Positions 4,905 to 56,645 of a DNA stretch of 64,000 bases are shown here, in pieces. Source of the DNA: Candidatus Nanosyncoccus sp. (GTDB lineage Bacteria > Patescibacteriota > Saccharimonadia > Saccharimonadales > Saccharimonadaceae); contig JAZPZQ010000022.1 in the NCBI GenBank assembly GCA_045544765.1, forward strand, positions 9,837-73,836. Reading direction: 5' to 3'. A program made the position numbers and the translations under genes. Every line of letters begins with the position of its first letter. Position 1 is the stretch's first letter. The notes under the pieces are model-generated. The model was given only the letters and a program-made list of their open reading frames with translations. It was not told the origin of the DNA and ran no database searches.

Positions 4905-5285
4905 TTATTTACTTAATATTAAACTAAACAGCCAGGTAAAGAACAAATCGAGCAATGAAATAATAATTACAAATAAAGCTGTATAAATAATCACTGCTAG
5001 TACCATTTTCCAAGTTGCTTTGCGATTCGGCCAACGAACTTGTCGTAACTCGCGCCACGAATCGCGCAAATATCTACCCAAATATACGAAAGGACGAATC
5101 AAAATAAATGGTTTCTTTTCATTTTTCTCGCCTACTAGCTTTTCCGCTTTTTTGGTTTCTTTTCGCGCTTTCTTTTCTTGCTTTTTGTCTTTGACGACAA
5201 CTTTCTTGCGAGTAATTGCCGGCTCGTCCTGCTCTGTTTTCTTGGCGGGACCGTCGCTTGCTTTAATTCTAGTGATTTTAGCCAT
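4905..5285 (-). CDS. secE: Preprotein translocase SecE with charged N-terminal extension
   Basis: WRELRQVRWP motif plus one C-terminal TM; upstream of nusG. Confidence 0.93.
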   Translation of the reverse strand: MAKITRIKASDGPAKKTEQDEPAITRKKVVVKDKKQEKKARKETKKAEKLVGEKNEKKPFILIRPFVYLGRYLRDSWRELRQVRWPNRKATWKMVLAVIIYTALFVIIISLLDLFFTWLFSLILSK

Positions 5286-26217: not shown

Positions 26218-27924
26218 ATGTTTGATAACATGGGAAACTCTACCCCTGTAAATACCGGCCAAACTAACGAGCCGCAACTAACAAGAAAAGCCGTTCTATT
26301 CGCTCGCGTATCAACGGCGCGACAAGAAAAAGAAGGCTTATCTCTCGATGAAATTCAGCTACCGCGAATGCGCGATTATGCAATCGAGCAAAACTTGAAA
26401 ATCGTACGAGAATACGCCATTGGCGAGACTGGCGGCAGCTACAAGGAGCGTAAACGTTTCAACGAGATGATCCAGTTTCTAAAGGATAATCCGGACGTAA
26501 CGGATATTATCGCCTTCCGCGTAGATCGTATTACCAGGAACTTCCGCGACGCGGTAACGATTGAAGACTTACGTATTAAATACGGCAAGCGTATCCACTG
26601 TGTCGATGAAAGACTGATTCTCTCGGAGAATAGCCGCGCGACCGACCTCACATCTTGGAATGTGAAGGTTTTTGTGGGTCAGGAATATCTGAACCGTATT
26701 AAGGAAGATGGCTTAAACACGAAGATTAATAAACTGTCGCGTGGCGAGCTACCATGGAGCGCGCCTTATGGTTATGAATTTAGGACCATTAGTGTCAGAC
26801 CGAAGGTTAAAAACGTCGTACCAGTAGAACCGGCCGCCTCGATCGTAAAAGAAGTATTCTTGCTCTTCTCAACCGGAACTTATTCATGTAGGACTTTGGC
26901 GAGACTAATGAACAAGAAATACGGAACTAAATTCTCTCAAGGAATCATCCATAAATTCCTAAGATGCGAGTTTTATGTTGGATTTATTATCGATAAAAAA
27001 GGCGGAAAGAAATATCCGCATAATTATGAGAAGATAATAGATCGGGAGTTATTCGATATGGTCAACCAGATATTGGACAAGAGAAATCTAAAGAGCGACG
27101 ACCAGGTACCAAAGTATGGCGGAATAGACTCAGCTTATCGCGGTTTAATAAGGTGTGAAGAGTGTGGATGCACGATAACGCCAGAATTTAAGAAGCGCAA
27201 ACTAAGACATGGCGGCTATAATTACCATAAATACTACCACTGCACAAATCGACGCGGAGCACATAAGAGCTTGAAAAGCTATACCGAAAGCTACCTTGAT
27301 GAGCAAGTAAAAGAGTTCTTAAGAGGCTTAAAGCTAACCGAGGAAGAATTGGACGGAGTCAGAAAGGCACTGGCCGAAGCACACGCTGGAAAGATAGATT
27401 TCTATCGCGAGCAACGCCGAAGCTTGTCTCAAAAGCGCAAGAAACTAGAAGCGAGACAACAGGAAGCTTACGATATGTTGATGGACAAGAGTATTACTCT
27501 GGAACTTTATAACCAAAATAACGAGCGATATCGCAACGAACTGGCCGAGATCCAGGCGCAAGAAGCCGCGCTAGATCGAGCCGACGACAACTTCTATACT
27601 AACGCCGGCTATATCTTGAAAGTCTTTAAATATGCCGATAAATTATTCGACGTCGCGACGACGGCCGAAAAAAGAGACCTAATTGGTCTCGTCACGTGTT
27701 CGAACCGAACTTTAGGACCTAGTGGGCTGATATTACAGGGGTCAGGACCGTTCGCTCGGAACCTTTTGGACTCTAAAACTAAAAATGGCTGGGGTGAAGG
27801 GATTCGAACCCCTGAATGGTGGGACCAGAACCCACTGCCTTACCACTTGGCGACACCCCAGTACAAAACTAATTATATCACAAGTTTATTCGCTTCGCAA
27901 CGCTTCCACCGGGTCTTTGCGTGA
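26218..27924 (+). CDS. Large serine recombinase (integrase)
   Basis: LFARVS catalytic Ser, VDRITRN, APYGY, Zn ribbon CEECG...YYHC, coiled coil. The last ~46 codons are antisense tRNA and flank. Confidence 0.93.
   Translation: MFDNMGNSTPVNTGQTNEPQLTRKAVLFARVSTARQEKEGLSLDEIQLPRMRDYAIEQNLKIVREYAIGETGGSYKERKRFNEMIQFLKDNPDVTDIIAFRVDRITRNFRDAVTIEDLRIKYGKRIHCVDERLILSENSRATDLTSWNVKVFVGQEYLNRIKEDGLNTKINKLSRGELPWSAPYGYEFRTISVRPKVKNVVPVEPAASIVKEVFLLFSTGTYSCRTLARLMNKKYGTKFSQGIIHKFLRCEFYVGFIIDKKGGKKYPHNYEKIIDRELFDMVNQILDKRNLKSDDQVPKYGGIDSAYRGLIRCEECGCTITPEFKKRKLRHGGYNYHKYYHCTNRRGAHKSLKSYTESYLDEQVKEFLRGLKLTEEELDGVRKALAEAHAGKIDFYREQRRSLSQKRKKLEARQQEAYDMLMDKSITLELYNQNNERYRNELAEIQAQEAALDRADDNFYTNAGYILKVFKYADKLFDVATTAEKRDLIGLVTCSNRTLGPSGLILQGSGPFARNLLDSKTKNGWGEGIRTPEWWDQNPLPYHLATPQYKTNYITSLFASQRFHRVFA
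27786..27860 (-). tRNA. tRNA-Gln(CTG)
   Basis: Cloverleaf; anticodon arm GTGGG-TTCTGGT-CCCAC; GGTTCGAATCC; encoded CCA. Confidence 0.96.
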
Positions 27925-43180: not shown

Positions 43181-43256
43181 TGGCAGGGGTGGCAGGACTT
43201 GAACCCACGACACGCGGTTTTGGAGACCGCTGCTCTACCAACTGAGCTACACCCCT
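43181..43256 (-). tRNA. tRNA-Trp(CCA)
   Basis: Anticodon arm GCGGT-CTCCAAA-ACCGC; GGTTCAAGTCC; encoded CCA. Confidence 0.96.
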
Positions 43257-44554: not shown

Positions 44555-45754
44555 GTGCGCGCAATTTGCCTTTATTTGCATATCCATCAGCCTGTCCGCT
44601 ATCGCGAATATTCTATTTTTGATGTCGCCAATGATTCTAATTACTTCAAAGATTCATTCGACAGCCGTCAATCCAATGAGCGTATTTTCCGTAAAGTCAC
44701 AGATAAGAGCTACCGCCCAATGCTAGACTTATTGGAACAAAATATGCAAAAATATCCAGGCTTCAAGGTATCATTTAGTATTACCGGTACCTGGCTAGAT
44801 CAAGCCGCAAAATGGGCGCCGGAACTCATTATCCAGATCAAGCGAATGGTGGACCGCAATCAAGCCGAAATTGTCGGCGAGACTTATTACCACTCGCTTG
44901 CATATTTCTATAATCTCGACGAGTTCAACGACCAGGTTGAGTTACACGCAGAGAAGATCAAGCAATTGTTTGGTATCGCCCCGAAAGTCTTCCGTAACAC
45001 CGAGCTAGCTTACAACGATAGCTTAGCTCATTGGGCCGAAGAAAAGGGCTATCATGGCATCCTCGCCGAGGGTTGGGACAAAATTCTCGGTTGGCGTAGC
45101 CCTAATTTCGTCTATCGCCCTGCTGGCTGCAATAATCTAAAGCTTCTACTCAAGAACTACCACCTATCCGACGATATCGCCTTCCGTTTTTCTAACCGCA
45201 GCTGGAGCGAATGGCCTCTTACCGTGCCGAAATACTTGAATTGGCTTAATATGGACTGTCTCCGGGGCAATCTTATTAATTTATTCATGGACTTTGAAAC
45301 TTTCGGCGAGCATCAGTGGAAAGATACCGGCATATTTGACTTTATGAATAATCTCATCCCGCAATGGCTCAGCCAATATGAAAACAAATTCCTCACTGTT
45401 TCCGAGGCCTGCGATGTTTCCGAACCAGTCGGCGAAATTTATATGCCAGAGACCGTCACCTGGGCCGATACCGAACGTGACCTTTCCGCCTGGGCATCCA
45501 ATTCTATGCAACGTTCCGCTATGCAAGACCTTTATTCAATGCGAGACGCTATTCTAGCTACCAAAGACGGGCAGCTAATCCGCGACTGGCGCTACCTCAC
45601 CACCTCCGACCACCCCTACGCTATGTGTACCAAGTACTGGCACGATGGCGACGTCCACGCCTACTTTTCCGCCTACGCCTCACCTTATGAAGCCTTTATG
45701 TACTTCGAAAACGTCCTCCGCGACCTAGAATACAGATTACACATAAAAAAATAA
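44555..45754 (+). CDS. Glycoside hydrolase family 57 (alpha-amylase-like)
   Basis: HIHQP, ETYYH, FRNTEL, FMDFETFGEH, TTSDH. Confidence 0.92.
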   Translation: MRAICLYLHIHQPVRYREYSIFDVANDSNYFKDSFDSRQSNERIFRKVTDKSYRPMLDLLEQNMQKYPGFKVSFSITGTWLDQAAKWAPELIIQIKRMVDRNQAEIVGETYYHSLAYFYNLDEFNDQVELHAEKIKQLFGIAPKVFRNTELAYNDSLAHWAEEKGYHGILAEGWDKILGWRSPNFVYRPAGCNNLKLLLKNYHLSDDIAFRFSNRSWSEWPLTVPKYLNWLNMDCLRGNLINLFMDFETFGEHQWKDTGIFDFMNNLIPQWLSQYENKFLTVSEACDVSEPVGEIYMPETVTWADTERDLSAWASNSMQRSAMQDLYSMRDAILATKDGQLIRDWRYLTTSDHPYAMCTKYWHDGDVHAYFSAYASPYEAFMYFENVLRDLEYRLHIKK

Positions 45755-45774
45755 CCCCTCGAAGGGGTTATTTT
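45746..45774. terminator. Bidirectional terminator between GH57 and rpmG
   Basis: AAAATAACCCC-TCGAA-GGGGTTATTTT. Confidence 0.8.
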
Positions 45775-45982
45775 AACGTTTCTTCTCTTTGACTTCGTTT
45801 CTGCCGAGATTTTTCTTTGTTTCCACGAAAAGCACATGCTTCCTTAGCACCGGATCGTACTTCTTGAGGCTAAGCTTATCTGGGGTATTCATTGTGTTTT
45901 TCTTGGTATAATAAGCACGCACACCAGACTCTTCCGAAACCAAGCCAACCAATTTTCTCTTAGTGTTATTCTTCTTTGCCAT
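45773..45982 (-). CDS. rpmG: 50S ribosomal protein L33 (no Zn ligands, C-terminal extension)
   Basis: YYTKKN...[19 protein letters not shown]; true start MAKKNN at 45982. Confidence 0.93.
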
Positions 45983-46010
45983 AATAGACACCATTTTACC
46001 ACATAACAGG

Positions 46011-46042
46011 AAAAACCGCAAGACCCTAAGTCCTGCGGTTTT
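46011..46042 (-). terminator. Intrinsic terminator downstream of the Zn-finger microprotein
   Basis: AAAACCGCAGGAC-TTAGG-GTCTTGCGGTTTTT on the minus strand. Confidence 0.75.
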
Positions 46043-46077
46043 ATTGAGGTGAATTTAATGAAAGAATTAATGACGGA

Positions 46078-46209
46078 TTATGAACCGCAACGCAAAATAT
46101 GCACAGCATACTGACCTTCGGTCAGAAAAACTTTGCCACACCTTTCACAGGTCCAAGTTACACTGTAAATGTGTTTTCTGCGATAAGTCCATTTCCGATT
46201 TTTTGCCAT
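46078..46209 (-). CDS. Unannotated 43-aa basic C2HC zinc-finger microprotein
   Basis: MAKNRKWTYRRKHIYSVTWTCERCGKVFLTEGQYAVHILRCGS; C-x2-C-x12-H-x3-C; SD GAGGAAGGTGGTG. Confidence 0.72.
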   Translation of the reverse strand: MAKNRKWTYRRKHIYSVTWTCERCGKVFLTEGQYAVHILRCGS

Positions 46210-46230
46210 AGGCATCACCACCTTCCTCTA

Positions 46231-46286
46231 ATGTTCATCGAATATTCGATGAACATCATTTTACACCTAAACCGGGTTTTTTGCAA
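46231..46286 (-). promoter_or_regulatory. Promoter TTGCAA-17-TAAAAT with a perfect 26-bp palindrome over the predicted start site
   Basis: -35 at 46281-46286, -10 at 46258-46263; ATGTTCATCGAATATTCGATGAACAT at 46231-46256. Confidence 0.65.
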
Positions 46287-49200
46287 GCAAAAGCTTAATA
46301 AACTGCTTAATATCGGCCAATTTTAGGTTAGGATTCGCCGGCAAAAAGATCTCGGGGTCATCCATAAATGCCAGCGTTTCCACTTGTCGATAAACACTTT
46401 GTATCAGTTTAATTAACTCAGTTTCCGCTTCTTCTTCAAAATCATATGGTTTATCGTAGACTTCACCATCCTTATCTGGCACGACAAATAGGATATGCGC
46501 ACGTGTGACCTTATATTTGCGGTAGGTCGGCGAATTATTCAGGAGCAGTTTATAAAACAATAGCTGCAACATATATTTATACAAAGTAGCGTGGCTCTGC
46601 CATTTTTCCTTGTGATAGCCAGCTGTCTTAAAATCGTAAATTTCGATTGTTTTTGATTTTTCGTCGATTACAATATGGTCAATCGCACCAGTCACAGGTA
46701 CCCCAGCCACTGTCAGATTCTCTGGTCGTAGGTTTACTTCGGCCTTACCCGTTCTTAAAATGGCCCCAAACCGTTCCAAAGACACCGCCAAATCCGCCGG
46801 TCCCTTCTCGCGTAACCTCCGCATCACTTCGCTCTCCAGTTCCTTCTTCTCTAGCTCAGCCAGGAAATATTTAATTGCTTCATCATCAGACAGCCCGTCA
46901 TTAGTCACCGCTTCAAAGGTCTTATGTACCAAATTACCAAATGCCAATGCCTCCGTCTCCGGCTCGCTCGGCACTCGCAGGATTTCACGCTTAAAGAACT
47001 CCTCCGGCCCCGCGTACACAATATCAATAAAAGTAGTAAGTGATGTTGCTGACATCCGGTAACGACTGACCTGCTCCTTATAGATTGCCTTCATATCCGG
47101 TGTAGCGTCGCGGTAGGGCGATAGCCAATTTTTCAGGTTATTTTCGGAGATTTTATCCGCGCTTTGATCGTAGCAGCAATTCACTTCTCGGGACGGTAAA
47201 TACGGCGAAATCACCTTATCACCCTCTGTGTATTCTGCCAAATATTCCAACCTTTCAGGGCTTTTGCCGTTAAAATCAGCCAGCGAATTAGTAATATAAA
47301 GTGACTTTTTCGCCCGGGTCAACGTCACATACAGAATTCTTAGCTTTTCTCCGTCGGTTGTACCGGTATGACGAATCTGCATCAGGTTTTTAGGCAAACT
47401 TAGGGTGTTGTTGTTGCCTTTGGCTTTACCCCAGGCCATATTATCCGCCGACAAGATAAACACATACTCAAACTCGAGCCCCTTCGCTTTATGCGCCGTT
47501 AACACCTGCACAGCGTCCGTAGCCTCTTTGTATGGCGACAAAGTATTTATAGGCATCTCGGCAGACTCATAATCATCCACCATTGCAATCAAATCCGCAA
47601 GTTTCAGGCTTTTATCGCCAAAATGCTTGCGCAGTTTCCCTCGTAAAGCTGCCAAATTTTCGTACAAAGAAAACGCCGTATATTCACCCTGGTCTGTATA
47701 ATAGCCAAGAAACGGCGAGCGATACCCCTCTAGCTCTATCGCTCCAATCAGATAATCTAGGAAAATCTCCAATGGCTCTGTAAACGAACGCGCAACTAGA
47801 TTTGTTAGCCATTCCGCCACTTGCCGAATCTCTGGTACTTTCGAATTCGCTAAATAATCAAACACCGCCTTTCTATCACGTCGCGCCGAGGTAATAATTT
47901 TTACCACCTCTAACATTGGCAATTTAAAAAACGCATATCCCAATACTTCCAAAATTGCTGTGTTTCCGTTCTGTTGGTTCGCCAGCTCATATACCACCCG
48001 TGCCAATGTCAGAATCTGGTGAATTTTATCATCCTCCAGTAAATCACTCTGTTTCTCATACGCAATATTAATCTCAGGATGGGATTTTAGATAAGGCAAA
48101 AGCGGCATAAAATACTTGCGCTTGTAGGAAATTATTGCGATTTCATTCTGCGGCACCCCAGATTTTATCAGCTTGGCAATCCTATTTGCGACAAACCCAA
48201 ATTCCATATCTGACGCCTTAAATTCGTAACGATAAATCTGGGACTGGCTCGGCGCTTCCTTATGCGAAATCAACTCCTTATCCGCAAATCGATCCGGCGC
48301 TTGTCGGATTATCTCTCCCGCAAAGTCTAAAATCTCTTGCGTGCTCCGGTAATTTTCTACCAGAGGTATCACTTCCGCCTTGTAATGTTCCTGAAAATCC
48401 GTCAAATTCGTCGACAGCGCCCCCTGAAATTCATAAATCGCCTGGTCATCATCGCCCACTGCCATAATCATTGGCTTTTCGTAATCCGTCAAAGCTTTAA
48501 TGATTGCAAATTGCGATGGGTTAGTATCCTGAAATTCATCTAGCATAATATATTGATAGCGCTCCGACAAAGTTAACCGGAACCCTATGTCGCTAGACAG
48601 TATTTTTACGGCTTCCTGAATCATATCATCAAAATCATATAGGTTATTTTCACGAAGATGCAGGTCATATTGCTCTGCTACGTTTGCAAGGCCGAGTAGT
48701 TTTTTATTCGCCACGCGGTCTTTTAGTCTGTAATTCCCCTTCGCATCCTTCTCGAAATGGTCATTACGCCATTTGGTGAGCCCAGTAACTTTTTGTGAAG
48801 ATTCCGCCTCTATCATTGCCTCCCTTAGACTCCGCGCTAGTTCGCCAATTGAACGCTCTACTCGAGGTAAAATTGGTTTTACTTCGACGTATTCCTTTAG
48901 TATTTCGTTAATCGGCTGGTAAGCTTCCTCATAAGAATCTTTAAAGTTCCTCGGTACTACTTTTTTCAGCAGAGGCGATATTGCCTCTGACAAGACTTTT
49001 GAATCTTCCAGGTTAACTTCCGCTATTTTCTTCAAATCTGCCGGTGTAAGACCTGCTGATTTGGCTGCGGAAATCACACTAATGATATTTTTAACATTAT
49101 CACCCCTTAAAATGTCCGTACCTGGTAGAGCGTCCTGGATTGATTTGACAATCTTAAACTGCGTCACTTCATCAATGGCCGAATCTAGCTGCCGATCGTA

Positions 49201-49500
49201 ATCTTCGCTGTAATTACGATATTGCGCCAAAATATCTGTGCCAAACGCGTGATAAGTCCCAATGTTTACCTTCATCGCATCGGTACCGATTATGGTCTTT
49301 AAGCGCTCGCGCATATTTGAAGCGCCTGTCTCTGTAAAGGTCAAACATAAAATATTCTCTGGATTAGTATCCGTAGATTTCAAAATATAAGCCACCTTTT
49401 CCGACAGAAGTTGGGTCTTACCTGTGCCAGGACCCGCTAGCACCAACAAAGGTCCGTCCAGGTATTCTACCGCTCGCTTCTGATTCGCATTTAATCCCAT
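46267..49500 (-). CDS. UvrD/PcrA-like SF1 helicase fused to a C-terminal PD-(D/E)xK nuclease (AddA/AdnB-like)
   Basis: AGPGTGKT, LDEFQDT, VGDDDQAIY, TAHKAKGLE, YVTLTRAK, GAIDH...IYDFKT. Confidence 0.9.
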   Translation of the reverse strand: MGLNANQKRAVEYLDGPLLVLAGPGTGKTQLLSEKVAYILKSTDTNPENILCLTFTETGASNMRERLKTIIGTDAMKVNIGTYHAFGTDILAQYRNYSEDYDRQLDSAIDEVTQFKIVKSIQDALPGTDILRGDNVKNIISVISAAKSAGLTPADLKKIAEVNLEDSKVLSEAISPLLKKVVPRNFKDSYEEAYQPINEILKEYVEVKPILPRVERSIGELARSLREAMIEAESSQKVTGLTKWRNDHFEKDAKGNYRLKDRVANKKLLGLANVAEQYDLHLRENNLYDFDDMIQEAVKILSSDIGFRLTLSERYQYIMLDEFQDTNPSQFAIIKALTDYEKPMIMAVGDDDQAIYEFQGALSTNLTDFQEHYKAEVIPLVENYRSTQEILDFAGEIIRQAPDRFADKELISHKEAPSQSQIYRYEFKASDMEFGFVANRIAKLIKSGVPQNEIAIISYKRKYFMPLLPYLKSHPEINIAYEKQSDLLEDDKIHQILTLARVVYELANQQNGNTAILEVLGYAFFKLPMLEVVKIITSARRDRKAVFDYLANSKVPEIRQVAEWLTNLVARSFTEPLEIFLDYLIGAIELEGYRSPFLGYYTDQGEYTAFSLYENLAALRGKLRKHFGDKSLKLADLIAMVDDYESAEMPINTLSPYKEATDAVQVLTAHKAKGLEFEYVFILSADNMAWGKAKGNNNTLSLPKNLMQIRHTGTTDGEKLRILYVTLTRAKKSLYITNSLADFNGKSPERLEYLAEYTEGDKVISPYLPSREVNCCYDQSADKISENNLKNWLSPYRDATPDMKAIYKEQVSRYRMSATSLTTFIDIVYAGPEEFFKREILRVPSEPETEALAFGNLVHKTFEAVTNDGLSDDEAIKYFLAELEKKELESEVMRRLREKGPADLAVSLERFGAILRTGKAEVNLRPENLTVAGVPVTGAIDHIVIDEKSKTIEIYDFKTAGYHKEKWQSHATLYKYMLQLLFYKLLLNNSPTYRKYKVTRAHILFVVPDKDGEVYDKPYDFEEEAETELIKLIQSVYRQVETLAFMDDPEIFLPANPNLKLADIKQFIKLLLAKNPV

Positions 49501-50270
49501 TCTTTGAATCTCCCTATTATTTCGTTCATTATACTTGTAGTCGGTGGCAAATCGATTTCTCCTCGGATGATTCTCTTTAGCGCCGAAAGACCTTCGACCG
49601 TCTTCTCCGGGCGGAGAGAACCATTTTGCCTGAGCAAATCACCAAATTCATAATTTCTTGATGGATAGCCACAGGTGAGTTTAAGATCCCCAATCCCGCA
49701 CACCAAATTCACCGTATCCGCTCTGGCTCCATTTTCCGCCAAAATTGCCTTCATCTCGTCACAAGTCGCTTCGATATATCGCATCCACTCCTCACTGTCT
49801 CGTCTTAGTCCCCGGAATCCTGCTTCAATCGCATAAACGTTTTTAAGCGCTCCGCACATCAAAACGCCATTCTCATCGTCAGTCATATCAAAAGACAAGT
49901 AATCCGTAGTAAATAAATCCACGATTCGCGCGTCTGTCGCCGTTAGCTTAGTGGGCTTACCAGCCTTAATATCGTCCGCGAAACCCGGTCCCGACAATAC
50001 CATATAATCGCTAAAATCAGCAAAGGTTTGTGCCGACAGTATCCCTTTAGTGGCCACAATCAGCGGTATTTTTTTAGGTAAATGTGGTAGCACATAAGGC
50101 ACGGCTCGGGAGGGCACCGCTAGTACGATATATTTCGCCGAGCTTACCACTTGAGCTAAAGATTCACGCTCCACTCGCGAATCGTAATAATCAATATCGT
50201 ACCCCTTCTCAGCCAGCACTCCACCGAGCGCTGTTCCAAAAGCCCCGGCACCTAAGATTGCAATTTTCAT
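49491..50270 (-). CDS. gpsA: NAD(P)H-dependent glycerol-3-phosphate dehydrogenase, compact form
   Basis: GAGAFGTALG, GALKNVYAI, GIGDLKLTC...SRNY, KTVEG. Start MKIAIL at 50270. Confidence 0.85.
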   Translation of the reverse strand: MKIAILGAGAFGTALGGVLAEKGYDIDYYDSRVERESLAQVVSSAKYIVLAVPSRAVPYVLPHLPKKIPLIVATKGILSAQTFADFSDYMVLSGPGFADDIKAGKPTKLTATDARIVDLFTTDYLSFDMTDDENGVLMCGALKNVYAIEAGFRGLRRDSEEWMRYIEATCDEMKAILAENGARADTVNLVCGIGDLKLTCGYPSRNYEFGDLLRQNGSLRPEKTVEGLSALKRIIRGEIDLPPTTSIMNEIIGRFKEWD

Positions 50271-50303
50271 AATATCCATTATACACTATGATATAATAAA
50301 AAT

Positions 50304-56568: not shown

Positions 56569-56645
56569 TGGTGGACCCAGCAGGGCTCGAACCTGCGACC
56601 TTACGAATGTGAATCGTACGCTCTAGCCAACTGAGCTATGGGTCC
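56569..56645 (-). tRNA. tRNA-Val(CAC)
   Basis: Anticodon arm TACGA-TTCACAT-TCGTA; GGTTCGAGCCC; encoded CCA. Confidence 0.96.

Follow-up and report, generated by a model that had tools for sequence, protein, structure and literature searches.

The question raised by this locus is whether the short interval between a helicase-nuclease gene and rpmG, the gene for ribosomal protein L33, holds a gene of its own, and what the product of such a gene could do. The interval lies on the minus strand of a stretch of 64,000 nucleotides (nt) from Candidatus Nanosyncoccus sp. (Patescibacteriota, Saccharimonadaceae; contig JAZPZQ010000022.1), and this whole stretch is called the window below. A preliminary description, made from the sequence by itself, had pointed to a hidden transcription unit for a 43-residue basic zinc-finger protein at 46011-46286. 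We consider it very probable that the 43-codon open reading frame (ORF) is a genuine conserved gene under purifying selection and that the fold of its product is real. A genuine gene and fold together with a helicase-linked, nucleic-acid-binding role is the best explanation as a whole, and we give it a probability of roughly 55%, which is a blended figure for both parts.

The product of the ORF is MAKNRKWTYRRKHIYSVTWTCERCGKVFLTEGQYAVHILRCGS, with a computed net charge of +7 and an isoelectric point (pI) of 9.9. Residues 1-17 form a tail of charge +6, while residues 18-42 form the finger, which reads W-T-C-ER-C-GKV-F-LTEGQ-Y-AV-H-ILR-C and sets its ligands C21, C24, H37 and C41 in the pattern C-x2-C-x12-H-x3-C, with a 12-residue Cys-His spacer. 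The ORF, its R/K-rich N-terminus and the finger are all present in the sequence as first described. The frame ends two codons past the finger with a TAA stop codon at 46080-46078, about 35 nt before the terminator stem. Upstream of the ATG at 46209 there are two other possible starts, GTG at 46221 and ATG at 46215, but as these lie within or abut the Shine-Dalgarno site, translation probably begins at 46209. A six-frame translation of the window contains the motif [FYW]-x-C-x2-C-x3-F-x5-psi-x2-H-x3-C a single time, whereas none of 200 order-2 Markov simulations contains it, and even the looser pattern C-x2-C-x12-H-x3-[CH] has an expectation of 0.035 per window. None of the three start variants is present in a collection of 15 billion proteins, so that no entry there represents a gene call for this ORF, which bears out the word "hidden". 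A word-index protein homology search with the 43-mer gave no match.

Other searches recovered about 35 homologues, all unnamed or annotated as "hypothetical protein" in their sources. A DNA-level scan of species-representative genomes, for which the 43-mer was padded with two in-frame upstream codons, found two Candidatus Saccharibacteria metagenome-assembled genomes with the same gene order and an ORF of 59-60 amino acids (aa) at that place. Profile searches added P0001-P0007 and P0158-P0171, and a metagenome scan eight more family loci (L013-L019 and L021). Beyond the two genomes, the overall tally is 7 + 5 + 16 proteins and 10 metagenome loci. Exhaustive phmmer gave 616 hits, mostly eukaryotic multi-finger arrays that sum generic fingers, so that only short single-stretch hits are informative; the short homologues found in this way are P0029, P0034, P0102, P0130 and P0147. 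In alignment A6 (21 sequences) the threonine before the finger and the ligands C, C, H and C are invariant, and the glycine after the second cysteine and the core phenylalanine nearly so. The conserved ligands that the preliminary description had proposed to look for in relatives are therefore found. In the distant L019/L021-type proteins H-x3-C is shortened to H-x-C.

Three further matches were set aside. L003 (Buttiauxella) is a chance match within a 366-aa membrane-protein ORF, and L020 and L022 are unrelated or very weak matches. The L022 match (221-943) is a high-GC, actinobacterium-like 240-aa ORF that starts with EITWTCSRCGAEFVSRPDLATHLAVDH; its finger opens T-W-T-C-x-R-C-G as in the Saccharibacteria family, is fused to a long Ala/Pro/Arg-rich region and matches weakly at 38% identity. 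It is of interest since Actinobacteria are the usual hosts of Saccharibacteria.

Selection on the ORF was assessed over the 72-nt finger core in 15 distinct loci. In the proposed frame the mean ratio of nonsynonymous to synonymous differences (pN/pS) is 0.29 for the short form of the protein and 0.27 for the long form, the two forms being described below, as against 1.2-2.2 in the other two frames; pS in the proposed frame is itself close to saturation (0.79-0.93). Pairwise differences at codon positions 1, 2 and 3 are 0.27, 0.20 and 0.59, and the proposed frame is the sole frame of the six that is free of stops in 15/15 loci. A metagenome variant of the region, 95.6% identical, has one change in the ORF, which is synonymous (CGG>CGA). 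The dN/dS check suggested at the outset thus yields codon-level purifying selection. The gene is specific to a clade of gut/rumen-type Saccharibacteria and encodes a classical-type finger with a basic tail, which upholds the earlier view of a lineage-specific protein.

As judged from its sequence signals, the gene is an independent transcription unit with a sigma-70-type promoter, a leader, a Shine-Dalgarno site, the coding sequence and an intrinsic terminator, and its ends are predicted ones (Table 1). The two promoter hexamers are 17 nt apart in the window, and the -35 hexamer is embedded in the last helicase codons (L-L-A-K = ..TTG CTT GCA AAA). The number of promoters that the scan found in the window is not above chance (3 found vs 2.3 expected). 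A TTGC[ATG]A and TAxxxT pair, 16-18 nt apart, occupies the corresponding position in 15 of the 16 related loci, among them the distant L019 and L021, with TAAAAT, TATAAT, TAATAT, TATTAT, TAAGAT and TACTAT as variants of the -10. All relatives inspected have an A/G-rich GGAGG, GGTGG or GGGGG site 5-9 nt from the start codon. The terminator hairpin folds at -19.6 kcal/mol (z = -4.8) and is kept in 12 loci with two compensatory (covarying) pairs and the T-run; its typical form in relatives is GGCAAGAC-loop-GTCTTGCC followed by a T-run. A simple terminator scan of the window missed this hairpin, probably because the A/U stem extension consumes the T-run, and Rfam has nothing at gathering score in the region (E of about 0.7-0.95 in a sensitive scan, i.e., noise). 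The strong Shine-Dalgarno site, the promoter and the gene's own terminator, all claimed earlier, are present, and their positions are conserved in the relatives.

The predicted fold is that of a classical-type beta-beta-alpha C2HC zinc finger, a model in which we have good confidence. AlphaFold2, run on an alignment of eight rows, places strands at residues 19-20 and 27-28 and a helix at 31-40, with a predicted local distance difference test (pLDDT) score of about 88 for the finger and a disordered tail. The top Foldseek matches are all C2H2/C2HC fingers at a root-mean-square deviation (rmsd) of 0.5-1.3 Å. The finger of MYST acetyltransferases, a C2HC finger of identical C-x2-C-x12-H-x3-C spacing, superposes at 0.5 Å over 25 residues with 36% identity. 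Sequence searches of the PDB return classical fingers only (e.g., ZNF568, CTCF, SALL4 and Miz-1). The window protein has sub-threshold C2H2-type matches (E 0.006-0.02) and scores 15.5 bits with zf-met, for which the gathering score is 21.2 bits; the homologues P0001 (22.1 bits) and P0029 (21.9 bits) exceed it. C21, C24, H37 and C41 would bind one Zn(II), which would stabilise the finger.

The window protein shares with the classical C2H2/C2HC fingers (zf-C2H2 PF00096, zf-C2H2_4 PF13894, zf-met PF12874, MYST PF17772) the pattern psi-x-C-x2-C-x3-F-x5-psi-x2-H-x3-C, the 12-residue spacer, the predicted beta-beta-alpha fold and even the "CGKxF" knuckle, and its nearest neighbours in structure and sequence are the fingers of ZNF568, CTCF, SALL4, ZNF32 and MOF/KAT6A. 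Unlike these, the family is bacterial, and its finger makes up a protein by itself (one finger in 35-49 aa) or together with a CxxCxGxG centre, with no tandem array or large enzyme around it; and unlike in C2H2 fingers, the last ligand of the window protein is Cys rather than His. For a "C2H2 in bacteria" the usual reference is Ros/MucR, which is likewise bacterial and combines a zinc site of the Cys2-His type with a basic DNA-binding setting. However, the window protein has a C2HC site and a beta-beta-alpha unit of about 26 residues in a total of 43 aa, and the ROS_MUCR Pfam model does not match it even at E <= 10. A Cys-His spacer of 12 residues is typical of eukaryotes and one of 9 residues is typical of Ros, a protein of about 140 aa whose ligands are C2H2/C2H3 and whose globular beta-beta-beta-alpha-alpha domain comprises 58 residues (PMC9779718). 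Membership in Ros/MucR is therefore rejected on the spacer (12, not 9), the total length and the missing ROS_MUCR match.

The C(P)XCG micro-proteins of Haloferax volcanii (HVO_2753, HVO_0758) are reported to be one-domain proteins of <70 aa that stand alone, are transcribed from units of their own and have partners that are for the most part not known (PMC6562870, PMC10716476, PMC11241148). They resemble the window protein in that both are very small prokaryotic zinc-finger proteins, each encoded in a separate transcription unit, but the window protein has a C2HC site with beta-beta-alpha spacing, and the CxxC...CxxC kind appears in its family only in the long form, in the C-terminal half. For the window protein, a zinc-ribbon C(P)XCG identity was rejected. 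A phage or defence origin was rejected as well: there are no relatives of the small protein in 2.9 million viral contigs, and PADLOC recognises none of the short, long and two-finger forms. PHROGs returned weak matches of unknown function only, the best being phrog_3931 (6.5e-6) to just the CxxCxGxG half of a long form. Our literature search found no paper that links Saccharibacteria to a protein of this kind.

The family comes in two architectures. The short form (the window, L004-L011, L013-L016, P0166-P0168 and P0170; 35-49 aa) has the finger [VI]TW[TS]CxRCG[KA]VFxT[EQ]xx[YW]A[VIM]H[ILVM][LM]xCGS, preceded by a tail of 11-21 residues that is always basic (+2 to +9) and unconserved in sequence. 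In the long form (L001, L002, L012, L017-L019, L021, L023, P0001-P0007 and P0159-P0165; 59-64 aa) the finger, whose helix is charged (..ERDRHxAEC), begins at residue 2 and is followed by two CxxCxGxG repeats that would form one zinc centre of DnaJ/anti-TRAP type. This C-terminal half matches Pfam Anti-TRAP (E 0.014-0.77), DnaJ_CXXCXGXG (E 0.0005-0.63) and NCBIfam RtpA (E 0.002-0.005), all below threshold, and the AlphaFold model gives it low confidence (pLDDT 56-66). P0158/L024 has two fingers and a CxxCxGxG centre.

Several long-form genes carry a 4-nt insertion after the ancestral start ATG-ACN-TGG (ATGA/TTG, ATGA/GTG or ATGC/GTG), at L001 6015-6021, L002 6015-6021, L012 4997-5003, L017 4021-4027 and L024 ~4997-5003; the ancestral start is kept in L018, L019, L021 and L023. 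The insertion puts the ATG out of frame and an in-frame TGA just before the new TTG or GTG. Since purifying selection persists in these genes, initiation must use the non-ATG codon 4 nt downstream, and the Shine-Dalgarno spacing fits that start.

On a neighbour-joining tree of the C-terminal 400 residues of the helicase, whose deep nodes are without statistical support, the long form occupies basal branches (L019, L021, L023, L002) and both forms are interspersed in the crown. The long form is apparently ancestral. The helicases of the window, where the small gene is of the short form, and of L024, with its two-finger long form, make a robust pair at 80% identity, while all others are at <=70%. 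No locus among those compared carries both forms. As each form is a distinct sequence type and the two are interspersed on the tree, the slot has been re-filled, which suggests recombination or cassette exchange between lineages via the conserved flanks, or differential loss from an ancestral pair.

The one neighbour kept in all loci is the helicase-nuclease (Pfam UvrD-helicase 1.2e-62, UvrD_C 8.3e-25, PDDEXK_1 1.3e-16). Its gene immediately precedes the small gene wherever upstream DNA is available (L001, L002, L004-L013, L015-L019, L021, L023 and L024), at 49-80% identity to that of the window. Among these are loci at 49-58% helicase identity in which the downstream gene is not rpmG (L019, L023), and there is no terminator between the two genes. 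The small gene could be transcribed both by read-through from the helicase gene and from its own promoter in the helicase 3' end. The finger and the basic tail would bind nucleic acid (DNA ends, single-stranded DNA or RNA) and/or a partner protein, and the small protein would serve DNA transactions as an accessory of the helicase-nuclease and not as a partner of L33. We propose this helicase-linked, nucleic-acid-binding role tentatively, from synteny and composition; zinc binding, nucleic-acid binding and the helicase partnership are all what we infer.

Several observations weigh against this explanation. All Foldseek E-values are above 0.1, as the domain is tiny (25 residues), and the window protein is below Pfam gathering for zf-C2H2_4 (17.6 vs 27 bits) and zf-C2H2 (16.7 vs 25.2 bits). 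A search of sequencing runs for the region matched DNA contigs only, at 85-99% identity and with no RNA run, and gave no transcript, ribosome-footprint or proteomic support for the small gene. The distant relatives P0169 and P0171 do not adjoin a helicase. No helicase column separates short-form from long-form loci, and helicase identity within a form is not above that between forms (differences <=0.026), so that there is no signal of co-evolution between helicase and finger, and co-evolution or hitch-hiking of the two was rejected. In addition, a subunit dedicated to a conserved enzyme would not usually change its architecture so freely, with short, long and two-finger forms interspersed on the helicase tree. 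Finally, gene order kept within a moderately narrow clade may be mere inheritance and functionally silent.

Table 1. Features of the small-gene locus and its two neighbours, in window positions.
Feature	Position	Strand	Remarks
43-aa coding sequence	46078..46209	minus	basic N-terminal tail and C2HC beta-beta-alpha zinc finger (predicted)
-35 hexamer TTGCAA	46281..46286	minus	promoter scan and positional conservation
-10 hexamer TAAAAT	46258..46263	minus	just past the helicase stop codon; scan and positional conservation
Perfect 26-bp palindrome ATGTTCATCGAATATTCGATGAACAT	46231..46256	minus	between the -10 hexamer and the Shine-Dalgarno site
Shine-Dalgarno region GAGGAAGGTGGTGA	46215..46228	minus	purine-rich AAGGTGGTGA at 46215-46224, 5 nt before ATG 46209
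Intrinsic terminator	46011..46042	minus	stem CCGCAGGAC/GTCTTGCGG, loop TTAGG, T-run
Helicase-nuclease of superfamily 1 (SF1), 1077 aa, AddA/RecB-like	46267..49500	minus	UvrD domains and C-terminal PD-(D/E)XK nuclease
rpmG, Cys-free L33, 69 aa	45773..45982	minus	Pfam Ribosomal_L33 1.6e-19; ATG at 45982

A few further features of the helicase gene can be added. Its C-terminal peptide DIKxFIxLLLAK (window 46267-46310), which carries the -35 of the next gene, is conserved in all relatives, including L019 and L021, where the promoter lies past the stop codon; the peptide is therefore constrained in its own right. The start of the gene overlaps the end of an upstream 262-aa gene (49491-50279) by 10 nt, at 49491-49500; the counterparts of this upstream gene in relatives resemble gpsA and have NAD_Gly3P_dh domains. 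Such an arrangement hints at translational coupling and looks more like a housekeeping operon than a mobile defence island. Matches of the helicase to GajB reflect generic UvrD similarity, and there is no GajA neighbour.

Turning to other explanations, the small protein could be a pure protein-binding adaptor or inhibitor of the helicase-nuclease or of another partner, without any nucleic acid, in the manner of anti-TRAP, the plant BIRD/IDD C2HC fingers or UBZ. We find this unlikely. The C-terminal half of the long form does resemble DnaJ CxxCxGxG and anti-TRAP, and there are weak Pfam matches to zf_UBZ and to the BIRD-IDD C2HC finger, but the scores behind all of these likenesses are under the curated cut-offs. 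The rapid turnover of architecture is as seen in modulators; however, the short form no longer has the anti-TRAP-like half and carries a newly gained basic tail, a sign of a polyanion as ligand, and there is no covariation with the helicase. The comparison with anti-TRAP (RtpA, 53 aa) and the DnaJ Cys-rich domain holds for the long-form relatives (~60 aa) with their two CxxCxGxG repeats, whereas anti-TRAP has no beta-beta-alpha finger and the window protein has zero CxxCxGxG repeats, on which ground a DnaJ/anti-TRAP type was rejected for it.

The next explanation is the one favoured at first, namely a micro-protein that attaches to rRNA or the ribosome, or serves translation as a zinc buffer, in connection with a Cys-free L33. 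The L33 is indeed Cys-free, and rpmG comes next after the small gene in most close relatives. The small protein is highly basic, its gene has a strong promoter and a strong Shine-Dalgarno site, and a P. furiosus ribosome chain is among the Foldseek matches. A 47-aa C2H2 "nucleic acid-binding protein" in the Thermococcus kodakarensis ribosome (PDB 6SKG, chain Bo) is of similar size, with a single rRNA-binding C2H2-type finger, and gives a weak profile match (E = 0.006); the small zinc-finger protein aS21 in archaeal 30S subunits (PMC12605026) counts in the same direction. Nevertheless, the 6SKG protein is archaeal and its similarity is that of a generic C2H2 signature only.

The synteny with rpmG, which the preliminary description had singled out for checking, does not hold throughout. 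The gene is inverted in L011 and L024, and in L019 (a convergent 339-aa gene) and L023 (an ABC-F gene) it is not the downstream gene, while the linkage to the helicase persists. Because the helicase, and not rpmG, is the invariant neighbour, a functional connection of the small gene with L33, the ribosome or zinc buffering finds no support. Between the two genes there are a conserved terminator and a separate conserved rpmG promoter: an extended -10 (TGgTAAAAT) at 45993-46001, 10 nt upstream of the ATG, which is found in 14 loci (the window, L001, L002, L004, L005, L008, L009 and L012-L018) as T-G-n-TAAAAT/TATAAT at 10-11 nt from the ATG. L33 is 95-100% identical across relatives whose helicases are 57-80% identical, while the small protein swaps domains and has unconserved tails, which would not be expected of a ribosomal protein. 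With a single Zn in 43 residues, it would also be a poor zinc buffer. Taken together, these results make a ribosomal or zinc-buffering role quite unlikely. Control of rpmG by a leader peptide or upstream ORF was rejected too, since a terminator lies in between, rpmG has a promoter of its own and the gene is inverted in two loci.

Some observations concern rpmG itself. There is no Shine-Dalgarno site before it in the window or in 13 relatives, and with an extended -10 so near the ATG the L33 mRNA is probably leaderless or has a leader of 2-4 nt. The L33 of the window is longer than the L33 models it matches (47-56 positions), the excess being a Lys/Glu-rich C-terminal extension. The inversions comprise about 210 bp (L011 4330-4539, L024 5293-5502), the flanking genes keep their orientation and the two loci are not sisters on the helicase tree, which looks like recurrent flipping of a single small gene between two terminator hairpins. 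At 45748-45774 the window has a perfect hairpin with a 12-bp stem, AAAATAACCCCT/AGGGGTTATTTT, and T-runs on both strands, probably a bidirectional terminator shared by rpmG and a convergent GH57-family gene (44555-45754). Elsewhere in the window, Rfam recognises an L10 leader (2054-2142, minus; 50.8 bits, above the gathering score), and there are three tRNA genes (27789-27860, 43184-43256 and 56572-56645, the last on the minus strand).

Autoregulation has to be considered because of the palindrome, which the preliminary description had placed over the start site as operator- or hairpin-like. In this explanation the protein is a sequence-specific DNA-binding regulator of its own gene and the palindrome is its operator. 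Its perfection and its place in the leader are confirmed, and every other perfect palindrome in the window is shorter; moreover, classical fingers read DNA in eukaryotes. The palindrome search was run in the 64-kb window only, and no second copy was found there even at three mismatches, which makes the sequence unique but also leaves a regulator without a second site. A single finger reads about 3 bp, and the protein has no evident dimerisation element. The finger is conserved while the palindrome is absent or different in every relative, even in the closest, L024, and thus it is not a family-wide operator. In the 95.6% identical variant, C>U at 46251 (minus) turns a C-G into a U-G pair, which breaks the DNA symmetry and spares the RNA helix. 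We therefore regard autoregulation through this site as very unlikely.

The palindrome is a feature of this genome alone and is best read as a leader RNA hairpin with a part in stability or processing, not as an operator. As RNA it folds at -19.2 kcal/mol (z = -4.5). Of the two earlier suggestions we prefer the hairpin to the operator. A transcript starting about 7 nt past the -10 would keep a 6-bp hairpin at its 5' end, while read-through RNA from the helicase gene would fold the full 12-bp hairpin, which may be a processing or stability element on that RNA. Several short-form loci have other 5'-leader hairpins, yet whole-leader z-scores are mostly -2 to +2, and long-form loci with 30-nt leaders have no 5' hairpin. 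A conserved 5' hairpin was thus rejected as a family feature.

That the ORF is a chance reading frame with a coincidental finger motif can practically be dismissed: it is short, missing from the protein collection and below the Pfam thresholds, but the motif is expected about 0 times per window, the ligands are invariant in some 35 homologues, selection is confined to the one frame that is open in all 15 loci, and the promoter, Shine-Dalgarno site and terminator are conserved.

The classical zinc-finger fold is usually regarded as near-exclusive to eukaryotes. It is conceivable, though somewhat doubtful, that we are dealing with the first recognised family of stand-alone eukaryote-type C2HC micro-proteins (12-residue spacer) in bacteria, found in host-associated Saccharibacteria only, with two interchangeable architectures in a fixed slot behind a helicase-nuclease, and that it represents a new accessory of DNA-end processing or recombination, or a lineage-specific component of the ribosome or nucleoid. 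Saccharibacteria and other Patescibacteria have tiny genomes with a large share of genes of unknown function, and small ORFs, of which this 43-codon gene is an example, are routinely missed in annotation. The analysis also corrects a tempting but unsupported link of the small gene to L33 and zinc economy. The 43-aa finger is a concrete and easily synthesised target for biochemistry, and the two alternative architectures at one locus are a small natural experiment in domain swapping. Saccharibacteria depend on natural transformation and an epibiotic life, and the fixed place of the small gene behind the only AddA/RecB-like helicase-nuclease leads to a testable hypothesis of a role in DNA repair or recombination.

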